Shown here: one piece after another, positions 379-10,330 of the stretch | Layout of the letters: each line of letters begins with the position of its first letter | Numbering within the stretch: position 1 is the first letter of the stretch | Source of the DNA: a virus | Taxonomy: Duplodnaviria > Caudoviricetes | Length of the DNA stretch: 64,000 bases | Virus record (IMG/VR): IMGVR_UViG_2839026242_000001 | Coordinates: 64,001-128,000 of that record | Strand: one strand, 5' to 3' | Notes under the pieces: generated by a model | The model's database searches: none | The model's input: the letters and a program-made list of their open reading frames with translations, nothing else | What the model was told of the DNA's origin: nothing | Made by a program: the position numbers and the translations under genes

Positions 379-464
379 TTATGATGCCTCCTATTTGAGC
401 GCTCTCTATCTTTGGTCGGACGGAAGCGCTCTTTTCTTATTATAAAGTATGAGCAACTTGTACA

Positions 465-508
465 AGAACACTTGTTCTTATTATGACTGATTCACAAATT
501 CTCGTCAA
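465..508 (-). promoter_or_regulatory. SigA promoter with an adjacent LexA (SOS) box
   Basis: TTGACG (508-503), 17 bp, CATAAT (485-480); AGAACACTTGTTCT at 465-478 fits the Firmicutes GAAC-N4-GTTC box. Confidence 0.65.
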
Positions 509-664
509 TATGTTATACCCGTTTTCAAATACATTTTATCAAGTGATTTCACTGAAATCACGAAGTATTGGTAAAATCGAAGGGGAATTCATTTCAACGA
601 ATTCCTATTGACAAACTAAAATATTTTAATAATTCAATTAATAAAAATAAAAACCCTTATGGAT

Positions 665-1498
665 TTAAGGGTTTTTAAGAGTAACTGTAAATTGCACATG
701 ATTATCTTTTGCTTGACCGATAATTGTCCCATTGTGTTTTTCAACCAATTTTTTCACAATGGCTAACCCATTTCCTCTTTTCTTGTCCTTATTGGTCGTA
801 TATCCTAATTCAAACCAACAGGAGATTGAAACATCTTCACTCTTTAAATAGCAATTCTCAAAAATTAACACATCTTCTTTGTCAATCGTATACCATCTAA
901 ATGTAATTTGCTTGTTTTCACTGTGTTCAGATGCTTTGATTGCATTGTCCAAAAGATTCCCAACAATAGCAACCAAATCCTTAGTATTGAAACTAGCAAG
1001 TTGCGATTTGCTGGTAATATCACAATTTACTGTCACACCTCTTTTATAAGCATCATAGAATTTTACACTTAATAAATATGACAATGCAGGATTGTGAATT
1101 TCTGTGATAAACGTGTGCTCATCTTTTAGGTCAAGTATATTGTTCAAATATTTTCTAGCATTAGAATACTGTTCGTTTTCTAACATTTCATCGATAAGTG
1201 TGTAATTTTTAGATACCTCACTTATCGTTTCTTCAAACATATTGTATACGAGTTCTTGCGAATGACTGTATTGCTTACTTGTCTCATGGGCAGTTTTCGC
1301 AATAACTATAAATAAATACCTGATAAATATTAAAATCAATAATGCAAATAGAATTGTCATAGAAATGTTTAATGTCCACACTTTTTCTATAACTTCAATA
1401 TTAATAACAGCTATTGTCATCAATATAAGTTCAATGATCCCAATAATATAGAGCAATAATACATAAAACTGTTCTAAAGTCTTTGGAATGATAAACAT
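665..1498 (-). CDS. AgrC/CitA-like GHKL histidine-kinase-like protein, 2 TM, phospho-His apparently absent
   Basis: N box GNLLDNAIKA, F box FELGYTT, G2 RGNGL; hydrophobic N-terminus. Confidence 0.85.
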   Translation of the reverse strand: MFIIPKTLEQFYVLLLYIIGIIELILMTIAVINIEVIEKVWTLNISMTILFALLILIFIRYLFIVIAKTAHETSKQYSHSQELVYNMFEETISEVSKNYTLIDEMLENEQYSNARKYLNNILDLKDEHTFITEIHNPALSYLLSVKFYDAYKRGVTVNCDITSKSQLASFNTKDLVAIVGNLLDNAIKASEHSENKQITFRWYTIDKEDVLIFENCYLKSEDVSISCWFELGYTTNKDKKRGNGLAIVKKLVEKHNGTIIGQAKDNHVQFTVTLKNP

Positions 1499-1608
1499 AT
1501 CCCTAAACTCCTATTTATCTTCTCCGTATCGAGATTTATGATATTCTGATAGCCAGCCGAAAAAATGACACAACCATCTTTTTATTCTATGCTTCATTTT
1601 TTCACCCT

Positions 1609-2388
1609 TTATAAATTATTCACAAACTTTAACAGACTTCCCAGCATACCTCGTCTATTTTTTAGATCAGCGCTATGCATTGTCACCATCTTTTTTACGT
1701 AATTTACTCTCTCTTCACTTATTGGCAACACATCATCATTCGACATAATCAATACATTGTCTTTGACTTCTTTGGCAAACCCCAGGTTTATTATGGATGA
1801 TCTACTAATGTAGATAAAATTGTGATCTTCTAATAGTTTCGCATAAACATTCAATCGCAATTCTGTTGTGTATGGCTCTACTCGTCCAACTGTACGAACA
1901 TTTACATTACCCTTGGTTGACTCTATATAAAGGATTTCCGATGGGAAGGTAACATATGATTCATTGCCACAAATGGGAATACAAGCCCCATTATTATCAA
2001 TAAAGCGTTTATATAAGTAATAATTTTTGAGTTTCTCCAGCGCACTTTTAAGTCTTTTAAAATCAATTGCTTTTGTAACAACATCTGTAATACCAATAGT
2101 GTAAGAATGTGCTGCGAGCAGTTTTTCACCAGTTACTACAATTGCAGGCAAATCATAGCCATATTCACGACACAAGTTATATGCAGTTATCCCGTCGATT
2201 GACTCACTTCCCAGATCGAGGTCAAGTATTAAAGCATTTATGTTGTCCTTCTCACTAAGCTGTAAAAACATTTCATCAGCATTTTTCGCAGTGTGCACAC
2301 TTTTTACAAAGGGCAAATGATAAACATATGTAGCGAGCAGCTTTCTGATTTCAAATTGATCTTCGACGATCAAGATATGTAGATCCAT
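1609..2388 (-). CDS. AgrA-like response regulator (REC + LytTR)
   Basis: IVED and ILDLDL receiver motifs; LytTR signature ILYIES...FIYISRSSIINL; ATG at 2388 follows an RBS. Confidence 0.88.
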   Translation of the reverse strand: MDLHILIVEDQFEIRKLLATYVYHLPFVKSVHTAKNADEMFLQLSEKDNINALILDLDLGSESIDGITAYNLCREYGYDLPAIVVTGEKLLAAHSYTIGITDVVTKAIDFKRLKSALEKLKNYYLYKRFIDNNGACIPICGNESYVTFPSEILYIESTKGNVNVRTVGRVEPYTTELRLNVYAKLLEDHNFIYISRSSIINLGFAKEVKDNVLIMSNDDVLPISEERVNYVKKMVTMHSADLKNRRGMLGSLLKFVNNL

Positions 2389-2541
2389 CTGTGACTTCCC
2401 TCCCAAAGATGTTATAAGTTTATTCTAGCAAATGTCCTCACAGAAATAACGAAAAATAAACACATGTAAAGATTTTTCTTGACATATTGTTCGATTTGTG
2501 ATTAGAAGTAGAAAATGAAAAAGGTGAAAGCTGGACTTTCA

Positions 2542-2892
2542 TCAACTTTCACCTTTTTTTAGAAACTCTTTTAAATTCTCAATATGCTTTTCTGCTACTA
2601 CTATAGATTTTCTTGAGTCTTTTATGATGATTTTATGCTCTTTCTCATCAAGTTCAGCAATTTTATGTAAATTTACTAACACCCCCCAATCTAATCTTTC
2701 AAATCCTTTTTCCTTTAATACTACTTGCCAGTAGTCTAGCGCATTTGGGCGTACATAAACACCATCGGCTGTATGAAACTCAACTTCATTTCTTTTTCTT
2801 GCTAGGTGAGTAATATCTGTAACACTTAACCAAATTATTCCCTGCTCTTCGTTTCCTTTGCGAACACATGGAATAATCATTGCTGTTCTCAC
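2542..2892 (-). CDS. Stand-alone LytTR DNA-binding domain protein
   Basis: GFERLDWGVLVNLHKI LytTR-like motif; no receiver domain. Confidence 0.75.
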   Translation of the reverse strand: MRTAMIIPCVRKGNEEQGIIWLSVTDITHLARKRNEVEFHTADGVYVRPNALDYWQVVLKEKGFERLDWGVLVNLHKIAELDEKEHKIIIKDSRKSIVVAEKHIENLKEFLKKGES

Positions 2893-2906
2893 CCATTTCT
2901 TAATAC

Positions 2907-3035
2907 CTAGTTATTCTTGTACAATTCTTGAGGAGCTTCTGGCTGGTGAATAAGAGCTGCTGAGTATGGAGATACGACTAGTACAGCAACAATAGCCAAA
3001 AACCTAGAGATTTGTTTAGCAAGGAATGCTTTCAT
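2907..3035 (-). CDS. agrD: AgrD-like cyclic autoinducing-peptide precursor, 42 aa (MKAFLAKQISRFLAIVAVLVVSPYSAALIHQPEAPQELYKNN)
   Basis: Translated by hand; ATGA overlap with the agrB stop; AGGAGG RBS; amphipathic leader plus S-x4-HQPExP tail typical of AgrD. Confidence 0.85.
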   Translation of the reverse strand: MKAFLAKQISRFLAIVAVLVVSPYSAALIHQPEAPQELYKNN

Positions 3036-3568
3036 TTACAATCACCTCCTTCCATTGTTTTATATATAACCAATGTAAGGCTTTGCACAAAAAAAGTAAC
3101 TGCAAGTATATCCGACTCAATAATTAAATTTAATAAAATTATAAAAATAGATATCAGTTTTAACAATGGGTCATGTTTTTTAGTAAAAAACTTGGATTGA
3201 TTCACTCCAATGGGAGCTAATAATGCTGTAATAAATATTGAAATCAATGTTATTACAAATACATTTTTATCACTAACTGGTACATAAGGGATAAGTACTG
3301 CACCTATAACACTGAATATCGTACATAGTTCAGCACTTTTAAAATGAAATCCTCCAGAAAAAAATCTCAAAGAGACAAATGATATTAAAACAATAATAGT
3401 TTCAAGTGCACTTCCTAGCAGTGATGCTAGGAGCAATGATAAGAAAATTGCACTTCCTGTTCCAATGAGCATTATCAAAGAAAATTTCATGACTTCTATA
3501 CTACTTGTTTCATTTGGATTTATACTCTTAATCTTCACGGCAATTTTATAGGCTAGTGCCTCTATCAT
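3032..3568 (-). CDS. agrB: Accessory gene regulator B (AIP-processing membrane peptidase)
   Basis: LRFFSGGFH...C motif (catalytic His/Cys), LAP motif, multiple TM segments. Confidence 0.9.
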   Translation of the reverse strand: MIEALAYKIAVKIKSINPNETSSIEVMKFSLIMLIGTGSAIFLSLLLASLLGSALETIIVLISFVSLRFFSGGFHFKSAELCTIFSVIGAVLIPYVPVSDKNVFVITLISIFITALLAPIGVNQSKFFTKKHDPLLKLISIFIILLNLIIESDILAVTFFVQSLTLVIYKTMEGGDCK

Positions 3569-4238
3569 TCATTTCCTCCTTTTTGTTAGAAAAGTGAACC
3601 AATGAACAAAGACAAAATGTTAAAAATACAAGTAAAACCAAAATATATTCTCTATTTGCTAATGTACTAAGAAATACCATTAAACTCAAAAGTAAATATG
3701 ATGTAATTACTGTTATCAAAAGCGCAAAATTAATTGGATCATTTAAGCTTACCTTACGATGAGCATCAGGTATAAATTGCCATCCCATGTTTGTTCTTTT
3801 TATTATGACAGCTATACCTAGTGTTACAATTACCGTTATCAATTGCAATATATAACCAATCAGTGTAACGCCTTCGACAATCTCTTTGGTAAGTTGCTCT
3901 AACTCAAACGCCCCAATGTAATTCATTATTGCAAAACAAATAATTTGTATAGTTGAATATGCGCAATAGGATAATATCACTGCAATAGAAGAGTAAAAAA
4001 GTTGAATCCTCGAAAAATAAATAAATAATAATATCATAAGAGCTATTTGTAATGATACAGAAAAATTAACAAAATGAGTATTATATCTTAATACATATGA
4101 AAATACACTTTCGAGTACTGCTATTGCTAAAACAGGGACAACATAGTCCTTCATAGGCAATCTAAAGATAGCCAAGAGTAGCAAAACTATTGCAGCATAT
4201 TCTAAAGAAGAAAAGAATACAAAAAGAACGAGATCCAT
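3546..4238 (-). CDS. Polytopic membrane protein (~7 TM), candidate separate AIP sensor
   Basis: Almost entirely hydrophobic; first gene of the agr cluster; overlaps the agrB start. Confidence 0.6.
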   Translation of the reverse strand: MDLVLFVFFSSLEYAAIVLLLLAIFRLPMKDYVVPVLAIAVLESVFSYVLRYNTHFVNFSVSLQIALMILLFIYFSRIQLFYSSIAVILSYCAYSTIQIICFAIMNYIGAFELEQLTKEIVEGVTLIGYILQLITVIVTLGIAVIIKRTNMGWQFIPDAHRKVSLNDPINFALLITVITSYLLLSLMVFLSTLANREYILVLLVFLTFCLCSLVHFSNKKEEMNDRGTSL

Positions 4239-4336
4239 ATTTCATCTCCCTCACAGTAAAATATATTTGTATTTTACCACCCAGTAACTAAATGACAACA
4301 AGTTTTTTGGAACTTCAAATTAAAAGCAGTCCGTCA

Positions 4337-5365
4337 TTACGACAGACTGCCTTCTCCATAAAATTGTTTAATCATATCCATGTTAATATAACTCTTCATG
4401 GCAGACCAGTTATATTCTTCAACCCCATGATTATCGAACTTGCTTACTCCAAATTGTTCACATATTTCAAAGTATTGTTCTTTATCTCCAAAGTGTCCAT
4501 CCCGATCAAGGATTTGTTTTGCCATGTAGATCATGCCACTGCGCTGAATATTTTTCACCGTGAAGTTTTCAATATTAAAGAGTTCGCTAATTGTAGACAA
4601 TCTACCATAAACAACATGGGTATTAACTTGATCTATATGAACTACCTTAGTTTTTGCTGGCTTAATCACATACCCTGTTTCGATTAATTCGCTTGTCTCT
4701 TTTGTGTTTCTAGAGTTGGGGGCAATATGACCATTTCGCTTAAAGTACTCGGTTTGATTTATAGCATCTTTTATTAAGGTAATACATTCTTTAGGAGTTG
4801 TTATTCGTCTAGTTTGATTGTCTTTGTCATCAGTTAATATTAATTCATTGGTTTCAAAATTAACATCGCTTGGGCGAAGGTTTCTTAACTCAGAAACTTC
4901 CCGACCATTTGCCCCATAAAATAAGAGAGAGATAATCACAGCATCTTGAGCATTTTTACATTTTTCAATGATCTCGTCTATCTCTTTCTTAGAGAAAAAC
5001 ATTTTAATATTCTTGTCTATAAACTTTTCTGCCCAGTCATCGAGTTGATATTTCATGGGATTTATTGTGTTTGACCTATATCCTTCTTCAATTGCCCAGT
5101 CTAAATACGACGAAATAATACTAATATTTGACTTACTCGCCGCCAAAGTTTTTGGTTTAAGATGAAACAAAACATTCTCGATTTCTTTAATATTGAAATC
5201 GTACATGTCTCGTCCTAAACTTTCTTCAACAACACTGCTCCTAATAAAAATTCTTTCATACGGCCCTTTGCTATCATCAGAAATCACTTCCATGAATCTT
5301 TGTTTTACTCCTTCATTGTACATGTCGCCTTCATAAATTTGGTTAGGGGCTTTTTTATTAGACAC
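4337..5365 (-). CDS. YopR/MrpR-like repressor with a degenerate tyrosine-recombinase fold
   Basis: Integrase-like LLFYGANGREVSELRNL and TVKNIQRSGMIY without HxxR; directly follows the YopQ-like gene, as in SPbeta. Confidence 0.75.
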   Translation of the reverse strand: MSNKKAPNQIYEGDMYNEGVKQRFMEVISDDSKGPYERIFIRSSVVEESLGRDMYDFNIKEIENVLFHLKPKTLAASKSNISIISSYLDWAIEEGYRSNTINPMKYQLDDWAEKFIDKNIKMFFSKKEIDEIIEKCKNAQDAVIISLLFYGANGREVSELRNLRPSDVNFETNELILTDDKDNQTRRITTPKECITLIKDAINQTEYFKRNGHIAPNSRNTKETSELIETGYVIKPAKTKVVHIDQVNTHVVYGRLSTISELFNIENFTVKNIQRSGMIYMAKQILDRDGHFGDKEQYFEICEQFGVSKFDNHGVEEYNWSAMKSYINMDMIKQFYGEGSLS

Positions 5366-5368
5366 TTT

Positions 5369-6679
5369 TTAAACTCCCTCCAACGGAATTTGATTAAAAT
5401 ACTCACGAACAAACTTCTTGAATCTCTTGTTAGACAATGGAGCATTCATCTTTTTAACTTCGTCAAAGAACGGGTTGCTTTCGGTTAAGTCAATTTGTGA
5501 TATAACTTCTACAACACTTCTTGCTGGAATATTATTTTCGTACATATGTCTTGCTAAAGTAATATATCCAATAAACATGAAGTGTTTAGACATTATTGTT
5601 TCACCGCTTTTATCTCTTGCAAACTCCTCTGGGAAGGAACCAATCAGATAATCAAAAAACACTGTTAGATAATCTGCTAAATCCATAGCTTCGATTTTGG
5701 AATTGATCTTAAATTGTTCTTCGATCTCATCAGTCAATAGTTTATAACTCACTAAATGTCCAACATTGTGATTTACCAAATGAGTTGGAGAAACTCTATT
5801 CTTGAGTTCAGATTCTTTTTGAAGCTCTTTTGCAACAATGTCGCTGTATCTGTCAGCCTTAAGTTTTTGAATATAGGTGTTAGGCATCTTATTAACCGTA
5901 TTAATTTGTGCCACATATGCTTGAGCTTCTTTAATTGTAAAATTTTTTATAGCAACCTGTACTTTTAAATCTGCGTCAGGATTAAAATTATTTATTACTT
6001 GAGAAAAAGCGTTGAGACGATGGAATCCATCCAATATGTCGATTTCACCAGACACAATTGTCAATCTTCCGTGTTTAGGGTCATACATGATTTCATCATT
6101 TCCATCAGATAAAACGTTGAGTATTAACGTATCGGCTTTAAATGTATTATTTAATATATGCTGTGTAATCTCCTTTACTGATTGCGGATTAATGTTGGCT
6201 ATTGGAACAATTTTACCTTCTCTATTTTTTCTTTCTTTTGGATTACGTTGTGTTTCATGGTTATACTCGATGAGAAGTGAATTATCCCATTCAACAAGAG
6301 TCTTTATCGGCAAAACAGTAATAAATTCTTTATCATTTAAAGACAATACGTTATCAATTACAAGAGGTAGTTTAATTTTGTCATCATGATATTCCTCATA
6401 CCTTGAAGCAATTTGAATTTCTCTTTCGTTGAAATATAATTCGGGATTAAATATATTCTCTGATGTAAGGACATAAATTGCATTTGTAAATAAAAAGAGC
6501 ATTGTGTCATCAATCTCTTGAATAGGGATATTCTGACTAATAATCCTTTGAACATCTCCTGCAAGTATTTTATGTTTAGCTAATTCATTTTTCAGGTCTT
6601 CTGTAAATTTAAGATCAGATTTAATGGTTTCGAATTTTTGTACAAGGATTTCCTCTAGTTGAGAACGATTAACCTTCAT
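5369..6679 (-). CDS. YopQ-like DndB/DGQHR (ParB-like) protein of the lysogeny module
   Basis: ILDGFHRL motif; synteny with the yopR-like gene. Confidence 0.75.
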   Translation of the reverse strand: MKVNRSQLEEILVQKFETIKSDLKFTEDLKNELAKHKILAGDVQRIISQNIPIQEIDDTMLFLFTNAIYVLTSENIFNPELYFNEREIQIASRYEEYHDDKIKLPLVIDNVLSLNDKEFITVLPIKTLVEWDNSLLIEYNHETQRNPKERKNREGKIVPIANINPQSVKEITQHILNNTFKADTLILNVLSDGNDEIMYDPKHGRLTIVSGEIDILDGFHRLNAFSQVINNFNPDADLKVQVAIKNFTIKEAQAYVAQINTVNKMPNTYIQKLKADRYSDIVAKELQKESELKNRVSPTHLVNHNVGHLVSYKLLTDEIEEQFKINSKIEAMDLADYLTVFFDYLIGSFPEEFARDKSGETIMSKHFMFIGYITLARHMYENNIPARSVVEVISQIDLTESNPFFDEVKKMNAPLSNKRFKKFVREYFNQIPLEGV

Positions 6680-8512: not shown

Positions 8513-8626
8513 TTAGCCTCTTTCACCATCATCTGCAAGTTGTACAGATGGGGATACTGCGGTGTATGTAGCTACACCTAGCGTCAATACTGCGATAGCG
8601 AATGCAATAACTGCGACCTTCTTCAT
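8513..8626 (-). CDS. AimP/Phr-like secreted propeptide, 37 aa (MKKVAVIAFAIAVLTLGVATYTAVSPSVQLADDGERG)
   Basis: Translated by hand; AGGAGGTG RBS; MKK plus hydrophobic signal peptide; lies directly after the receptor gene. Confidence 0.85.
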   Translation of the reverse strand: MKKVAVIAFAIAVLTLGVATYTAVSPSVQLADDGERG

Positions 8627-8706
8627 TTATTTCACCTCCTTTCAAGAAGGTCGCACTAACAATCTTTAACTAGTATTAAATCCTTTCATGACACCATACC
8701 CCTTTC

Positions 8707-10044
8707 TCATAGACTGTCCTGAATAATTTTATTAAATTTATTTAATTGCTCGATTGTAGCTTTGTTTGAGTTATTAGTAAAGATCAACCAGCATTTTTTA
8801 ATCCGAGTTTCATTATTAAACAAATTAGCCATTTCAAGTGCTTTCAATATATATTCAATTCCTATGTGATCTTGTCCTTTTTCAAGATGATACACTCCGA
8901 GATATTGATATGCTTTTAATTTATGTTTTAATCCAACCGCTGAATTATCATTTTCCAATTGTTCCAAAACAGTACCGTTTTCTTCTAAAAACTTAGTTAT
9001 CTGGTTGTGTTCGTTATGTTTAATCGCTGCTTCAAGTAACACAGGGAATATTACATTCATTTTTTTAGAGTTTGTTGATGTCTTGAGATATTGTTCTAAG
9101 TGATTCCATTTCCCACTAAGAAGTTCAACTAAATGCATATTGCCTATGGCATACTTAGCGTAATTGGAATCTATAGAAGCATACTGATTAATTATCTTCT
9201 TTGATAGTTCAAATTCTCCCATTCCTTTATATGCAAACCCCTTATACAATAGAGCTTCACAGTGGTAATAATTTAATTTAGAATAGTCTAATTTGTCTTG
9301 TCTTAAATTATTCATACGCCCGTTGACAATTTGTACAAGTTTATCTGCATATTTCAATGTTCCATGATAGTCCTCAATCAAGTTTAGAAAAACAATTACT
9401 TCAAGATATGCATCAAGTATATATCTTTCTGGCATTAATTCAAGATAGTCTATCAGTTGAGATAATGCTTTTTTACAGTCTTTGATTCCTTCATTATGAG
9501 TGAGCATAATACTTCTTCTAATCATAAATGTTCTATAGTAACTCAATGAAAGGCGCTCATCTAACCTGTTATCGATTTTCGAAGTAATGAGCGAGTACAG
9601 TGGCAATATCTGCTTCAGATCGTTATTTTTATATTTATCTTCTGCAATCTCAAATATGATTCCAATATAGTTTTTGTTTGTCTCTAAGATCTTCCCTGTT
9701 ATTTCATTTATCAATGATTCATTATTTTCAATACTCAAAGATTCACGTAATAACTTTTCGCACTTAATCAAACTCATTTTTCCTTGCTTATTGATACATT
9801 CACTTAAAGATTCCTTCTGAAGTTCTCCTTTATTAAGTCCTAAAACTTCTTCTAGTTTAGAGAGTTGCTCAATTGAAAAATTTCGACTACCTCTCATTAT
9901 TTGGCTCATCGCTGTCTTATGTATCCCAGATGCCAATGCTAATTCGTTTTGCTTCATTCCTCTTGCACGTAAATAATATTGTATTTTATCTCTTAATGAA
10001 GCCTTTTCTAAATCAAAGTCATGTGGGATCATAAGACGTAGCAT
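8707..10044 (-). CDS. AimR-like RRNPP receptor (XRE HTH + TPR-like helical domain)
   Basis: N-terminal HTH (KQNELALASGIHKTAMSQIMRG), helical repeats, adjacent propeptide gene; ATG at 10044 follows GGAGG. Confidence 0.8.
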   Translation of the reverse strand: MLRLMIPHDFDLEKASLRDKIQYYLRARGMKQNELALASGIHKTAMSQIMRGSRNFSIEQLSKLEEVLGLNKGELQKESLSECINKQGKMSLIKCEKLLRESLSIENNESLINEITGKILETNKNYIGIIFEIAEDKYKNNDLKQILPLYSLITSKIDNRLDERLSLSYYRTFMIRRSIMLTHNEGIKDCKKALSQLIDYLELMPERYILDAYLEVIVFLNLIEDYHGTLKYADKLVQIVNGRMNNLRQDKLDYSKLNYYHCEALLYKGFAYKGMGEFELSKKIINQYASIDSNYAKYAIGNMHLVELLSGKWNHLEQYLKTSTNSKKMNVIFPVLLEAAIKHNEHNQITKFLEENGTVLEQLENDNSAVGLKHKLKAYQYLGVYHLEKGQDHIGIEYILKALEMANLFNNETRIKKCWLIFTNNSNKATIEQLNKFNKIIQDSL

Positions 10045-10330
10045 TTTTATTCCTCCCCTCAAATTTCCTTTTCTTGCTACATCTTTATAATAACACGGTT
10101 AACTAGATAATACAACATATTTTTAGTTATTATTTTCGTTCAAATTTCGTTTTATTCCAATTTCATATCTTTAAAAGTCTCATCAAATATTTCAATACAT
10201 TGAGAACATGCCCATTTGCTCATTATGTAACTATACATCACCTCCAAATTATCTTTCTCGCAATCCTCGCAACGTCCATTTTTCCATCCATCAGTCATGA
10301 AGTTATCCTCCTTGTGAAATTTTCAATTTA

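Follow-up and report, generated by a model that had tools for sequence, protein, structure and literature searches.

We found that a phage of ~168 kb carries a two-part agr-like cassette. The first four genes are a "kinase-less agr" unit, and the last two are an add-on. In the first unit and its relatives, the conserved partners of AgrB and AgrD are, as judged by homology, a membrane protein without a kinase domain (MP, a homolog of the AgrC sensor domain) and a DNA-binding protein with just a LytTR domain (LytTR-only). We think that the whole is probably a two-unit peptide-signaling locus of the agr family, in which the first unit would be a kinase-less circuit with MP as its sensor.

The window (the entire 64,000-nucleotide stretch of DNA that was analyzed) is C5:64001-128000, and the phage, which has low GC, is spread over contigs C5 (136,134 bp) and C51. 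The minus strand of positions 665-4238 holds six co-oriented genes, in the order MP, AgrB, AgrD, LytTR-only, REC-LytTR, and GHKL (Table 1). The initial annotation had proposed these six genes, and ORF and domain searches recovered all of them, all on the minus strand. This gene arrangement exceeds chance. The cassette starts directly downstream of a repressor gene that had been labeled yopR-like. The label is right, because the product of 5365..4337 matches MrpR_N_CB (E 2.9e-28) and MrpR_C_cat (E 9.3e-18). (It is 38% identical to homologs from Geobacillus virus E3 and Psychrobacillus phage Perkons.) The cassette is carried by the phage, well within it, rather than in chromosomal DNA beyond its boundary, as the initial annotation had allowed for: phage genes lie on both flanks, and C5 has 31-37% GC throughout, versus 52% for the genome.

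Table 1. Features of the cassette and its surroundings (positions in the window).
Feature	Coordinates	Strand	Evidence
Arbitrium-like pair	8513..10062	-	451-aa HTH-TPR receptor 10062..8707; 37-aa ORF 8626..8513
MrpR/YopR-type integrase-like master repressor	4337..5365	-	PF22822, PF22823; phrog_5830, E 8e-86
Hairpin over mrpR stop codon (10-bp arms, 5-nt loop), then T-rich run	4326..4350	-	by eye
Promoter-like site TTGTCA-16-TAAAAT, TG ahead of -10	4271..4298	-	consensus match, 10/12
MP, 230 aa, seven-helix membrane protein, no kinase domain	3546..4238	-	phrog_15604, E 5e-18, full length
AgrB, 178-aa membrane peptidase/cyclase	3032..3568	-	PF04647, E 1e-20; phrog_10353, E 5e-35
AgrD, 42-aa precursor	2907..3035	-	TIGR04223, 20.9 bits vs cut-off 19
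LytTR-only DNA-binding protein, 116 aa from GTG	2542..2892	-	PF04397, E 5e-12
Hairpin over LytTR-only stop codon (16-nt arms, 9-nt loop), then T-run	2518..2558	-	inverted repeat I1
REC-LytTR response regulator	1609..2406	-	PF00072, E 4e-13; PF04397, E 1.3e-12
28-aa ORF between REC-LytTR and GHKL genes	1511..1597	-	own AGGGTGA ribosome-binding site
GHKL protein, 277 aa	665..1498	-	PF14501, E 1.6e-12; PF02518
Intrinsic-terminator-like hairpin overlapping GHKL stop codon	648..677	-	scan: 12-pair stem then T-run; inverted repeat I5

AgrB keeps its catalytic His/Cys pair, H75 and C82, and R68, G73, H75, C82, and P119 are invariant in all 12 of the AgrB proteins that were aligned. (The AgrB of Brevibacillus phage Davies is 41% identical.) The model that AgrD matches, TIGR04223, is named 'cyclic lactone autoinducer peptide'. 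The AgrD gene has a ribosome-binding site (GGAGGTGA), and its start overlaps the stop codon of AgrB by 4 nt (ATGA). AgrD has no Cys, and its C-terminal end is ...SPYSAALIHQPEAPQELYKNN. It can be divided into a leader (residues 1-21), a predicted ring (S25-A-A-L-I29), and a tail (H30-N42), and Ser25 is 7 residues ahead of the tail's first Pro. We compared the phage AgrD with 31 related peptides, including those of L009 and L058. Because the Ser25 column holds Ser in 10 of these 32 peptides, counting that of the window, and Cys in a single one, the best reading is that the ring is SAALI and is closed as a lactone, as the initial annotation had predicted. In 3 of the 32, Ser is one residue closer to the Pro, in the same 'TAS' context, and 18 have Lys one residue later instead of Ser or Cys in this column.

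The MP-AgrB-AgrD-LytTR unit is apparently flanked by a promoter and a terminator of its own. The hairpin over the mrpR stop codon is probably a terminator between mrpR and the cassette; a terminator scan of the region did not report it. The promoter-like site precedes the MP start by 33 nt; it is a consensus match only, of a kind that occurs 28 times in the region versus 26 expected by chance. The hairpin over the LytTR-only stop codon probably marks the end of the unit. (The scan, which covered loops of up to 8 nt, missed it.) We found no AgrA-type direct repeats in the cassette's four intergenic regions.

MP has no match in Pfam and no protease motif. Its family has 203 representatives in a library of 1.84 billion proteins, and the family profile matches the N-terminal ~200 residues of AgrC-type kinases that adjoin AgrB (open frames of 445-483 residues; the 6 that were checked against Pfam are 436-460 aa). 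MP also aligns with the N-terminus of the host's AgrC (hhalign, 83.7% probability, E 8e-6), although this compares membrane proteins, whose composition inflates such scores. The AF2 model of MP has 7 long helices (pLDDT 94), and we found no solved structure that resembles it. On these profile comparisons, MP is a homolog of the AgrC sensor domain. The LytTR-only protein more likely starts from the ATG at 2880, which would make it 112 aa long and match its relatives, and F64 and D68 are invariant in an alignment with 30 cassette homologs.

The four-gene unit is present in 98 of the 151 genomes of one Bacilli family (f2) and in the Brevibacillus phages Davies and Emery. The order MP-AgrB-AgrD-LytTR is kept in 29 of 32 related loci. 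To see how the parts vary, consider the 15 pairs of loci with 85% or higher identity between their LytTR proteins. In 5 pairs, the ring is the same or has one residue changed, and MP is 83-95% and AgrB 89-94% identical; in the other 10, the ring has two or more changes, and MP is 47-72% and AgrB 45-82% identical. By percent identity, a change of ring in these relatives goes along with divergence of both MP and AgrB, while the LytTR protein is conserved. A caveat is that these are related chromosomal loci, mutually non-independent, and not this phage. In the staphylococcal specificity groups, the sensor, AgrB, and the peptide likewise vary together, and the DNA-binding protein is conserved.

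In the add-on pair, REC-LytTR likely starts at the ATG at 2388, which has GGGAGGG ahead of it, and its receiver is intact (acidic pair, phospho-Asp, Thr, and Lys, in an alignment with the host's response regulators). The 28-aa ORF that follows has no match in NCBIfam. Two membrane helices at the N-terminus of the GHKL protein are followed by a DHp-like helix and an ATP-binding domain that is intact. The protein lacks the first ~160 residues of the AgrC sensor: its residues 11-267 align to positions 138-408 of NCBIfam's staphylococcal AgrC model. Ser93 is at the position of the phospho-acceptor His, which is His in all 14 of the aligned AgrC-type kinases. (The GHKL protein was also compared with a 436-aa Cohnella kinase, using BLASTP.) From these alignments, we classify it as an N-terminally short AgrC-type kinase. 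The initial annotation had suggested that the phage carries its own readout. This idea needs revision: there is no normal AgrC/AgrA pair, as the GHKL protein is short and has Ser93 in place of His.

Unit 2 may be cargo that is decaying, given that GHKL could be inactive. It is conceivable, though doubtful, that only the four-gene unit works and that REC-LytTR and GHKL are the decaying remnants of a captured canonical agrCA pair. The missing sensor helices and phospho-acceptor His of GHKL would fit, as would its near lack of close relatives, the terminator-like hairpin between unit 1 and the pair, and the absence of the pair from every other cassette that we examined. But neither reading frame is broken, and a good ribosome-binding site precedes each. 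The receiver has kept its key residues and GHKL its N and G boxes, and a clean terminator closes the GHKL gene. Also, H71 and H79 are on the same helix as residue 93, with H79 exactly two heptads before it.

Is MP really a sensor? We consider it unlikely that MP instead assists AgrB in maturing or exporting the peptide or in removing its leader, with sensing by GHKL and REC-LytTR here and by host kinases elsewhere. In 29 of the 32 loci, the MP gene immediately precedes that of AgrB and the two overlap (by 23 nt in this phage), and at least one 408-aa protein, among 150 listed of the 203 family representatives, joins MP to an AgrB domain. However, this lone fusion could have arisen artificially, from a frameshift where two genes overlap, and MP occurs without AgrB in 3 of the 32 loci, once (L070) with LytTR-only alone. 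Co-divergence with AgrB and the ring would be expected of a processing partner too, so that pattern fits a receptor or an AgrB partner. The homology of MP to AgrC sensor domains, and its lack of a protease motif or a Pfam family, point toward sensing. Finally, we inspected the flanks of five cassettes over ~16 kb. Judging ORFs by their size and strand rather than by Pfam, we found none in the cassette's own gene run with the length expected of a kinase or a regulator. If MP were a processing partner, these cassettes would therefore have no dedicated sensor.

It seems rather improbable that the cassette acts mainly on the host. In this reading, GHKL would form mixed dimers with the host's AgrC or otherwise divert it, REC-LytTR would then read or block the host's agr signal, and the phage peptide would cross-inhibit neighbors. 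The host does have its own AgrC-AgrB-AgrD locus, whose peptide differs from the phage's, and its AgrC is the best match to GHKL in the genome (31% identity over residues 44-276, E 1e-27). This is closer than the best non-self match among 5.8 billion proteins (27%). GHKL also keeps its ATP-binding boxes while lacking the phospho-acceptor His. On the other hand, 31% identity is low for the formation of specific dimers, and the chromosome in the assembly is the putative host of the phage. Furthermore, the host would not need the phage's regulator, because it encodes three further LytTR proteins with the size of a regulator. Lastly, we think it very improbable that the whole region is inert cargo or another organism's DNA with no role for phage or host: the contig's GC is 18 points under the genome's and the phage-chromosome junction is absent from the assembly, but all six genes are intact with conserved catalytic residues, and 9 of 36 further genomes from the genus encode MrpR homologs (46-57% identity), one of which sits in a closed chromosome, within an island of 33% GC.

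We compared the cassette to known systems. It shares with agrBDCA of S. aureus the His/Cys pair of AgrB, a REC-LytTR regulator, and AgrC-type sensor and ATP-binding domains, and its AgrD shares the amphipathic leader, the position of the five-residue ring, and the Pro-rich acidic tail. Unlike in S. aureus, MP (the putative sensor) and GHKL are encoded separately, in different units, GHKL carries Ser instead of the phospho-acceptor His, a LytTR-only protein is added, the genes are ordered differently, Ser takes the place of Cys, and no P2/P3-type repeats were found. Ser also replaces the ring-closing Cys in the AIP of Staphylococcus intermedius/pseudintermedius and in GBAP, which Enterococcus faecalis makes from FsrD. 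These Ser-lactone peptides are chromosomal and are sensed by full AgrC or FsrC kinases. The closest known working model for MP and LytTR-only may come from the LytTR regulatory systems, of which HdrRM and BrsRM of Streptococcus mutans are examples and in which a receiver-less LytTR protein is controlled by a membrane protein without phosphotransfer. The membrane inhibitors of HdrRM/BrsRM are small and, to our knowledge, are unrelated to AgrC and not linked to AgrB or AgrD.

The Brevibacillus phages Davies (gp44-48), Emery (gp53-57), and Abouo have similar cassettes, with one or two MPs, an overlapping AgrB, a peptide of ~39 aa, and a LytTR-like protein of ~120 aa. As here, the phages are temperate and the cassettes lie in their lysogeny regions. 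(The Abouo cassette is known here from an AgrB match over the membrane-protein gene and from the available part of Hargreaves 2014.) But those phages are just 45-58 kb, their cassettes lack a receiver domain or a GHKL gene, and two of the three have two copies of MP. Their peptides have Lys near the ring position, not Ser or Cys, and the tail ...P..PKELRK. Their LytTR gene is annotated as 'peptidase' (including Davies gp48, which is 23% identical to LytTR-only) or 'hypothetical', and we found no mention of it in the available part of Hargreaves 2014. The Clostridioides difficile phage phiCDHM1 is also temperate and has agr signal-production genes with a sensor. In the portion of the source available, its agr3 locus comprises agrC, agrB, and agrD, with no regulator (PMC3901668); AgrC is a full-length kinase (453 aa), and there is no LytTR gene. 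In contrast, the phage described here combines a putative sensor that lacks a kinase with two LytTR proteins and a short kinase without the His.

In the mechanism that we favor, with MP as the sensor, AgrB (H75/C82) would cut off the 13-residue tail of AgrD and join the carboxyl group of Ile29 to the hydroxyl group of Ser25. By the rules of the family, the product would be a 16-membered lactone, SAALI, with a short N-terminal tail. MP would sense the released peptide and pass the signal to LytTR-only without phosphotransfer, most simply by holding LytTR-only at the membrane or releasing it. Unit 2 might either feed the same signal non-canonically into a phosphorelay or provide a link to the host's AgrC.

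An arbitrium-like pair lies ~4.3 kb upstream of the cassette. Its 37-aa ORF has a signal-peptide-like start and ends in ...DDGERG. The receptor matches HTH_3 and no AimR sequence family, and a Foldseek search with its AF2 model (pLDDT 86) found TPR proteins, including PlcR, AimR, and phi3T Rap. Another genome (G601) has a 27%-identical homolog of the receptor, followed by a 50-aa ORF that ends in ...SSGDRG. The initial annotation had overlooked this HTH-TPR receptor and propeptide. In arbitrium (AimR-AimP of the SPbeta-group phages), a peptide system likewise lies beside MrpR/YopR repressor genes in a large temperate Bacillus-type phage, and an HTH-TPR receptor and a short secreted-type propeptide are in that region here. 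Arbitrium's linear hexapeptide is imported and has a cytoplasmic receptor, whereas the agr cassette is predicted to use a cyclic peptide and a membrane sensor.

Given the arbitrium-like pair, the agr cassette is less likely to be the main lysis/lysogeny switch. Also, the cassette is absent from all three related MrpR loci that we found in the host's family, so it is not core to the switch of this type of phage. Because the locus is in the lysogeny-control region, after the master repressor and near the arbitrium-like pair, its likeliest use would be to sense density or kin among lysogens or infected cells, and we conjecture that this would control phage genes.

The cassette at 665-4238 has six genes, which are all on the minus strand and are transcribed in the order MP (a seven-helix membrane protein), AgrB, AgrD, LytTR-only, REC-LytTR, GHKL. 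Open reading frames and matches to Pfam and NCBIfam confirmed every item in the initial annotation of these genes, including their coordinates and strand. As had also been claimed, AgrD lacks cysteine (it ends in ...SPYSAALIHQPEAPQELYKNN), and a YopR-like repressor lies upstream: the gene directly upstream of the cassette (5365..4337) matches both domains of the integrase-like master repressor MrpR (PF22822 and PF22823), and 5' of this gene is one that resembles DndB and YopQ (PF14072). The same pair of genes is present in Geobacillus virus E3 and Psychrobacillus phage Perkons, which have the closest homologs of MrpR in the phage collection (38% identity). A blastn search with 400-5400 gave no match in 50,697 phage records.

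Genes and putative signals of the cassette, and the HTH-TPR gene pair upstream of it
Feature	Position	Strand	Description
MP (membrane protein)	4238..3546	minus	230 aa; no family in Pfam or NCBIfam
AgrB	3568..3032	minus	178 aa; PF04647, E 1e-20
AgrD	3035..2907	minus	42 aa; TIGR04223, 20.9 bits vs cut-off of 19
LytTR-only	2892..2542	minus	116 aa; PF04397, E 5e-12, residues 18-111 of 116
REC-LytTR regulator	2406..1609	minus	265 aa; PF00072 and PF04397
GHKL protein	1498..665	minus	277 aa; PF14501 and PF02518
Hairpin and T-run	across mrpR stop codon	minus	read from sequence
Promoter-like site with extended -10	33 nt 5' of MP start	minus	consensus match alone
Hairpin (16-nt arms) and T-run	over LytTR-only stop codon	minus	inverted repeat
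28-aa ORF	1511-1597	minus	good ribosome-binding site; between regulator stop and GHKL ribosome-binding site
Terminator-like hairpin, clean	overlaps GHKL stop codon	minus	terminator scan
451-aa HTH-TPR protein and 37-aa ORF	8513-10062	minus	~4.3 kb upstream of cassette

The first four genes are tightly packed. The genes for MP and AgrB overlap by 23 nt, the start of agrD lies inside the stop codon of agrB, and the gene for LytTR-only, which has no receiver domain, is directly 3' of agrD. (Such proteins fall in a size class of ~110-135 aa. LytTR-only matches a profile of 31 cassette LytTR proteins with E = 1e-36, but the window's own protein is among the 31.) Because they are bounded by hairpins and a promoter-like site, these four genes look like one transcription unit. 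The genes for REC-LytTR and GHKL come after LytTR-only on the same strand, within 136 nt and behind the hairpin. Together with the 28-aa ORF, they look like a second transcription unit. We considered whether the 28-aa ORF could be a second AgrD and rejected this: it has one cysteine, no family match, and no proline tail. In the four intergenic regions, we found no direct repeats of the AgrA type (9-10 nt, at most 1 mismatch, 15-25 nt from start to start), although these LytTR proteins may bind another motif. Downstream of the cassette (380-664), a promoter-like site (508..480, minus strand) is followed by several short inverted repeats (such as 543-561), which may serve as operators of the next operon.

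We then examined the setting of the cassette. The window comes from a 4.64-Mb assembly of 91 contigs and lies within a contig of 136,134 bp (C5:64001-128000), whose GC content is 31-37% in all 5-kb windows, versus 52% genome-wide. To the left of the cassette are genes for primase, a DnaB-type helicase, and a methyltransferase, and to the right are genes for helicases, a PhoH-like protein, and a terminase-like protein. A 541-aa large serine recombinase is encoded at the start of the contig (L109:106-1731) and virion proteins at its other end. A second low-GC contig, C51 (31.6 kb, 34.6% GC; L107 and L108), has genes for tape-measure, tail, and anti-repressor proteins, a tyrosine integrase, and an endolysin, and is probably the remainder of this phage. 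Together, the two contigs would form a phage of ~168 kb. Given the phage genes on both sides, the low GC content, and the position deep within this phage, the cassette is phage-borne, as the initial annotation supposed, and not DNA from outside the phage. (The assembly contains no junction between phage and chromosome.) Despite the gap in GC content, the phage seems to belong to the lineage of the assembly's host. Homologs of MrpR are found in 13 of 61 genomes from the host's family (the assembly itself included), with up to 57% identity, and in 9 of the 36 other genomes from its genus. One of these homologs is in an island of 33% GC in a closed chromosome, with flanks of 48-50% GC.

The cassette does not seem to be part of the core of this type of phage. 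No cassette genes are beside mrpR in the three related loci that we fetched (BLASTP, E 1e-5), and E3 and Perkons have different genes at this site, so we view the cassette as an insert in a variable spot. Two other features of the phage are worth recording. There is a second MrpR/YopP-like gene at ~17 kb on C5 (L109:16895-17797). Also, an IS200/IS605-type pair lies inside the phage at 12435-13955 (minus strand), with a 136-aa TnpA-like protein (phrog_2577) and a 367-aa TnpB-like protein (phrog_506); E3 likewise has IS605-like ORFB genes close to mrpR.

What is MP? It matches phrog_15604 over its full length (E = 5e-18) and the profile of its own family with E = 1.4e-68. When 1.84 billion representatives were scanned in full with HMMER, 203 relatives were found at E ≤ 1e-3. 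Among the 150 relatives listed, 149 have 149-247 aa; in the remaining one, of 408 aa, MP and an AgrB domain are joined in a single protein. A word-index search found one non-self relative. Two comparisons lead us to describe MP as an AgrC-type sensor domain without the kinase. First, when the profile of MP (62 sequences) was compared to the 447-aa AgrC of the host with hhalign, it aligned to residues 1-172 of AgrC (probability 83.7%, E = 8e-6). Second, we searched with the profile in 401 genomes of the phylum (including the assembly itself) and checked 27 neighboring proteins against Pfam. Besides stand-alone MPs, the targets included the N-terminal ~200 residues of kinases that adjoin AgrB, in frames of 445-483 residues with SPOB_a and HATPase_c_5 domains. 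Among ten full-length kinase frames, the five with the longest matches covered positions 1-194 up to 1-212, or 3-212, of the profile's 221; the other five covered 4-188 to 4-213, or just 7-147. A third class of targets consisted of naturally split AgrCs, in which a membrane ORF (155-180 aa) comes directly before a kinase (280-305 aa).

These split AgrCs were found in other genomes of the phylum (L013, L014, L017, L018, L022, L028, L031, and L035). The membrane ORF corresponds to helices one to five of MP, and the kinase half has SPOB_a and HATPase_c_5 domains; in L013, AgrB comes after the split AgrC. We considered whether MP and GHKL could similarly be one AgrC that was split in two, and rejected this because MP alone covers nearly the whole sensor. 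Also, GHKL has two helices of its own, and the first half of the natural splits is shorter (~155-180 aa). A protease of the CAAX/MroQ type was rejected as well, since MP has no match in Pfam and its near-invariant residues (S47, Q98, G152, and P157) make no protease motif.

The AlphaFold model of MP has seven long helices (pLDDT 94, pTM 0.91). Foldseek gave no match to this model in the PDB at E of 1e-3 or better, and a wide search with VIA-align found helical hairpins alone (residues 160-230, Z ≤ 8.6), which is within the noise for helical models. A profile search of PDB sequences had no hits below E = 0.5. Neither tblastn against the 50,697 phage records (E of 1e-3) nor a search of viral contigs identified relatives of MP.

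Related cassettes are present in Brevibacillus phages. Using AgrB as the query, tblastn found phages Davies, Emery, and Abouo alone (5 records, 33-41% identity). The records for Davies and Emery show the layout of the window's four-gene unit: one membrane protein or two, then AgrB, which overlaps, and after it a ~39-aa peptide and a ~121-aa protein. The ~121-aa proteins are annotated as "peptidase" or "hypothetical". Davies gp48 aligns with LytTR-only (E = 1e-8), and the membrane proteins gp44 and gp45 align with MP (E = 2e-9 and 3e-10, pairwise BLASTP). For Abouo, the evidence is an AgrB match that overlies a membrane-protein gene. Unlike these kinase-less cassettes, the window's cassette has genes for REC-LytTR and GHKL after the hairpin.

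Agr genes in phages have been reported for phiCDHM1 and three Brevibacillus phages (Hargreaves et al. 2014, PMC3901668). The sections of that paper that we consulted already noticed the Brevibacillus cassettes and described the membrane proteins as possible AgrC homologs without the ATPase domain; these sections do not mention the LytTR gene. The consulted parts of other papers on Brevibacillus or Paenibacillus phages list the annotation of AgrB and nothing more. Within the literature on phage agr and Brevibacillus phages, mostly abstracts, we did not find a description of the four-gene unit. (A 2025 review, PMC11945551, refers in the part consulted to agrB/agrC homologs in SPbeta-like phages, but the references it cites there are not on phages, so we gave this no weight.)

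The four-gene unit is a widespread and apparently undescribed family. In one family of Bacilli (f2), MP is found in 98 of 151 sampled genomes and in 17 of 19 genera, with up to 5 copies per genome. Using profiles built from Pfam-verified members, we found the order MP, AgrB, small ORF, LytTR-only in 29 of 32 loci. In one of the exceptions, MP is followed directly by LytTR-only, without AgrB; in the other two, MP is alone. Across five loci of ~16 kb each, no ORF in the same gene run has the size of a kinase or regulator (as judged by size and strand). Locus L042 (G300:C1:584488-601099) is the second MP-AgrB-LytTR locus in its genome and is followed on the same strand by ORFs of ~220-230 aa, which might be additional copies of MP.

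If we compare these loci to each other, MP changes together with the peptide. We considered 406 pairs of loci and used the C-terminal 215, 165, and 105 residues of MP, AgrB, and LytTR, which avoids over-long starts. LytTR is at least 85% identical in 15 pairs (the loci are related, and these pairs are not independent). In the 5 pairs whose ring is the same or has one residue changed, MP is 83-95% identical and AgrB is 89-94% identical. In the 10 pairs with two or more changes in the ring, these values are 47-72% and 45-82%. In the clearest pair, LytTR is 94% identical, MP is 47% identical, and AgrB is 45% identical. The same pattern characterizes agr specificity groups: by these alignments, MP, like AgrB, appears to be matched to the peptide. 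The co-variation fits with MP being the receptor, but if MP were a processing partner, the identical pattern would be predicted.

To examine the ring, we aligned 32 cassette peptides (the window's, 29 chromosomal, and two from phages) on the first proline of the tail. In 10 of these peptides, including the window's, there is a serine seven residues before the proline, and another peptide has cysteine in this column. According to the rule that agr peptides usually follow, the ring closes at the Cys/Ser column. Because Ser25 lies in it, the window's ring would be S25-A-A-L-I29, with the tail running from H30 to N42. The initial annotation had proposed the ring SAALI, which is well supported by the 9 other Ser peptides and the Cys peptide that share the column (n = 32). 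We predict that the peptide closes as a lactone. In AgrB, H75 and C82, which we take to be the catalytic residues (from work on S. aureus AgrB), are invariant in all 12 aligned AgrBs.

The other peptides differ at this position. In 3 of the 32, the serine is one residue nearer to the proline, in a shared "TAS" context. The remaining 18, including those of Davies and Emery, have neither cysteine nor serine there and have a conserved lysine one residue after the Ser column, or six before the proline (L009, L010, L044, L046, L048, L049, L051, L052, L054, L056-L061, L066, L001:5525-5644, and L002:5527-5643). TIGR04223 accepts the window's AgrD and one other Ser-type peptide, and it did not recognize any Lys-type peptide that we ran against it. 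By our own count, a ring of four residues that closes through the side chain of the lysine would likewise contain 16 ring atoms. These sequences hint that the Lys-type peptides could be lactam-type agr peptides; in literature listings, we found nothing on lactam or Lys-type AgrDs past a remark from 2014. The host also has a chromosomal agr locus, between hprK and uvrA (L007:5254-7370, contig C41), which encodes an AgrC of 447 aa, an AgrB of 202 aa, and an AgrD of 50 aa. The host's AgrD lacks a cysteine or serine at the expected ring position (...VMKGGFLYEPIPPHM...), has a lysine nearby, and is not matched by TIGR04223.

We then considered the second unit. The initial annotation proposed that the phage carries its own readout. 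The receiver pocket of REC-LytTR is intact (its acidic pair, Asp, Thr, and Lys all line up with those of host regulators). The readout would be unusual and not canonical: there is no single-protein AgrC in the cassette, as MP and GHKL are encoded by separate genes that are ~2 kb apart, and GHKL lacks the usual phospho-acceptor. In AgrC-type kinases, the part that aligns with GHKL comprises the final two membrane helices, the DHp helix, and the domain that binds ATP. (It matches positions 138-408 of NCBIfam's staphylococcal AgrC model, with 26.5 bits versus a cut-off of 500.) The phospho-acceptor histidine (in the RHDF motif) is present in 14 of 14 AgrC-type kinases and is replaced in GHKL by Ser93 (ISEV); in the same alignment, GHKL retains the N and G boxes. 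The same His-to-Ser pairing is seen in the BLASTP alignment to GHKL's best database relative, a 436-aa kinase from Cohnella (27% identity). Since H79 is 14 residues (two heptads) upstream of Ser93, with H71 further upstream, GHKL may have a non-canonical phospho-acceptor.

The two units also differ in their affinities. Within the assembly, GHKL is most similar to the host's AgrC (31% identity, E = 1e-27), and a word-index search found two non-self relatives. The phage's AgrB is closer to other cassette AgrBs (31-41% identity) than to the host's AgrB (24%). So, we view the locus as a mosaic of a mobile four-gene unit and a diverged, shortened pair of the agrC/agrA type.

Further upstream is a gene pair that looks like an arbitrium receptor and its propeptide. 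The 451-aa protein has an HTH_3 domain, and its AlphaFold-type model (pLDDT 86) has a TPR superhelix. Foldseek matched this model to PlcR (E = 5e-4), AimR (E = 1.1e-3), and the Rap protein of phi3T (E = 2.6e-3), among generic TPR proteins; there is no sequence-family match between this protein and AimR. The 37-aa ORF begins with a hydrophobic stretch resembling a signal peptide and ends in ...DDGERG. In a genome from the host's family (G601), a 27%-identical homolog of the receptor (L100:7606-8973) adjoins mrpR and has a 50-aa ORF after it, in which SSGDRG occurs twice, once at the extreme end. A word-index search found two non-self relatives of the HTH-TPR protein. When we used the receptor P0159 (49% identical) as a route to a related phage, we found nothing in metagenome and viral contigs. 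If the pair is indeed of this kind, then a peptide system would lie on each side of the phage's repressor genes.

How might the cassette work? By the rule for its family, AgrB would convert AgrD to a Ser-lactone. Homology and co-variation give moderate support to MP as the sensor of this peptide. LytTR-only would be under the control of MP without phosphotransfer, since the cassettes of Davies and Emery have no kinase or receiver domain, the same holds for five chromosomal loci (by ORF size and strand), and MP and LytTR are paired on their own in one locus. The regulator and GHKL might form a non-canonical phosphorelay that responds to the same signal, might link to the host's AgrC, or might be decaying cargo; we do not choose among these. 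That the cassette's purpose is tied to control of the phage is a conjecture, and the adjacent repressor is the sole hint of this. A joint scheme seems improbable to us: two independent peptide languages around the repressor, with the kinase-less MP reading a Ser-lactone and the second unit wired into the host's AgrC. Under this long shot, an arbitrium-like linear peptide would be read in the cytoplasm and the Ser-lactone at the membrane, where MP would control the bare LytTR protein. If it were true, then the density of phage, the density of lysogens, and the quorum state of the host would all feed into the decision between lysis and lysogeny, or into the decision to induce.

Most of what is known of communication by phages concerns arbitrium, or receptors that listen in on the signals of hosts. 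Here, an agr cassette is found in a ~168-kb phage of the MrpR type, beside the repressor and near an arbitrium-like pair, so two peptide systems may meet at one switch. The locus is a variant (the four-gene unit with a regulator and a GHKL protein that lacks the histidine) of a widespread, uncharacterized cassette. A further contribution is the comparative evidence that changes in the kinase-less MP go along with changes in the peptide, which would be expected of a receptor or another specificity partner; this makes agr signaling without phosphorylation a concrete and testable model. The hybrid form, in which a kinase-less circuit lies beside a receiver-LytTR regulator and an AgrC-type protein without its histidine, is a third contribution and could reveal how the two types of wiring connect. 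If the model is true, then the four-gene unit, which is often multicopy in the 98 of 151 f2 genomes, would be a large and unstudied class of peptide signaling.
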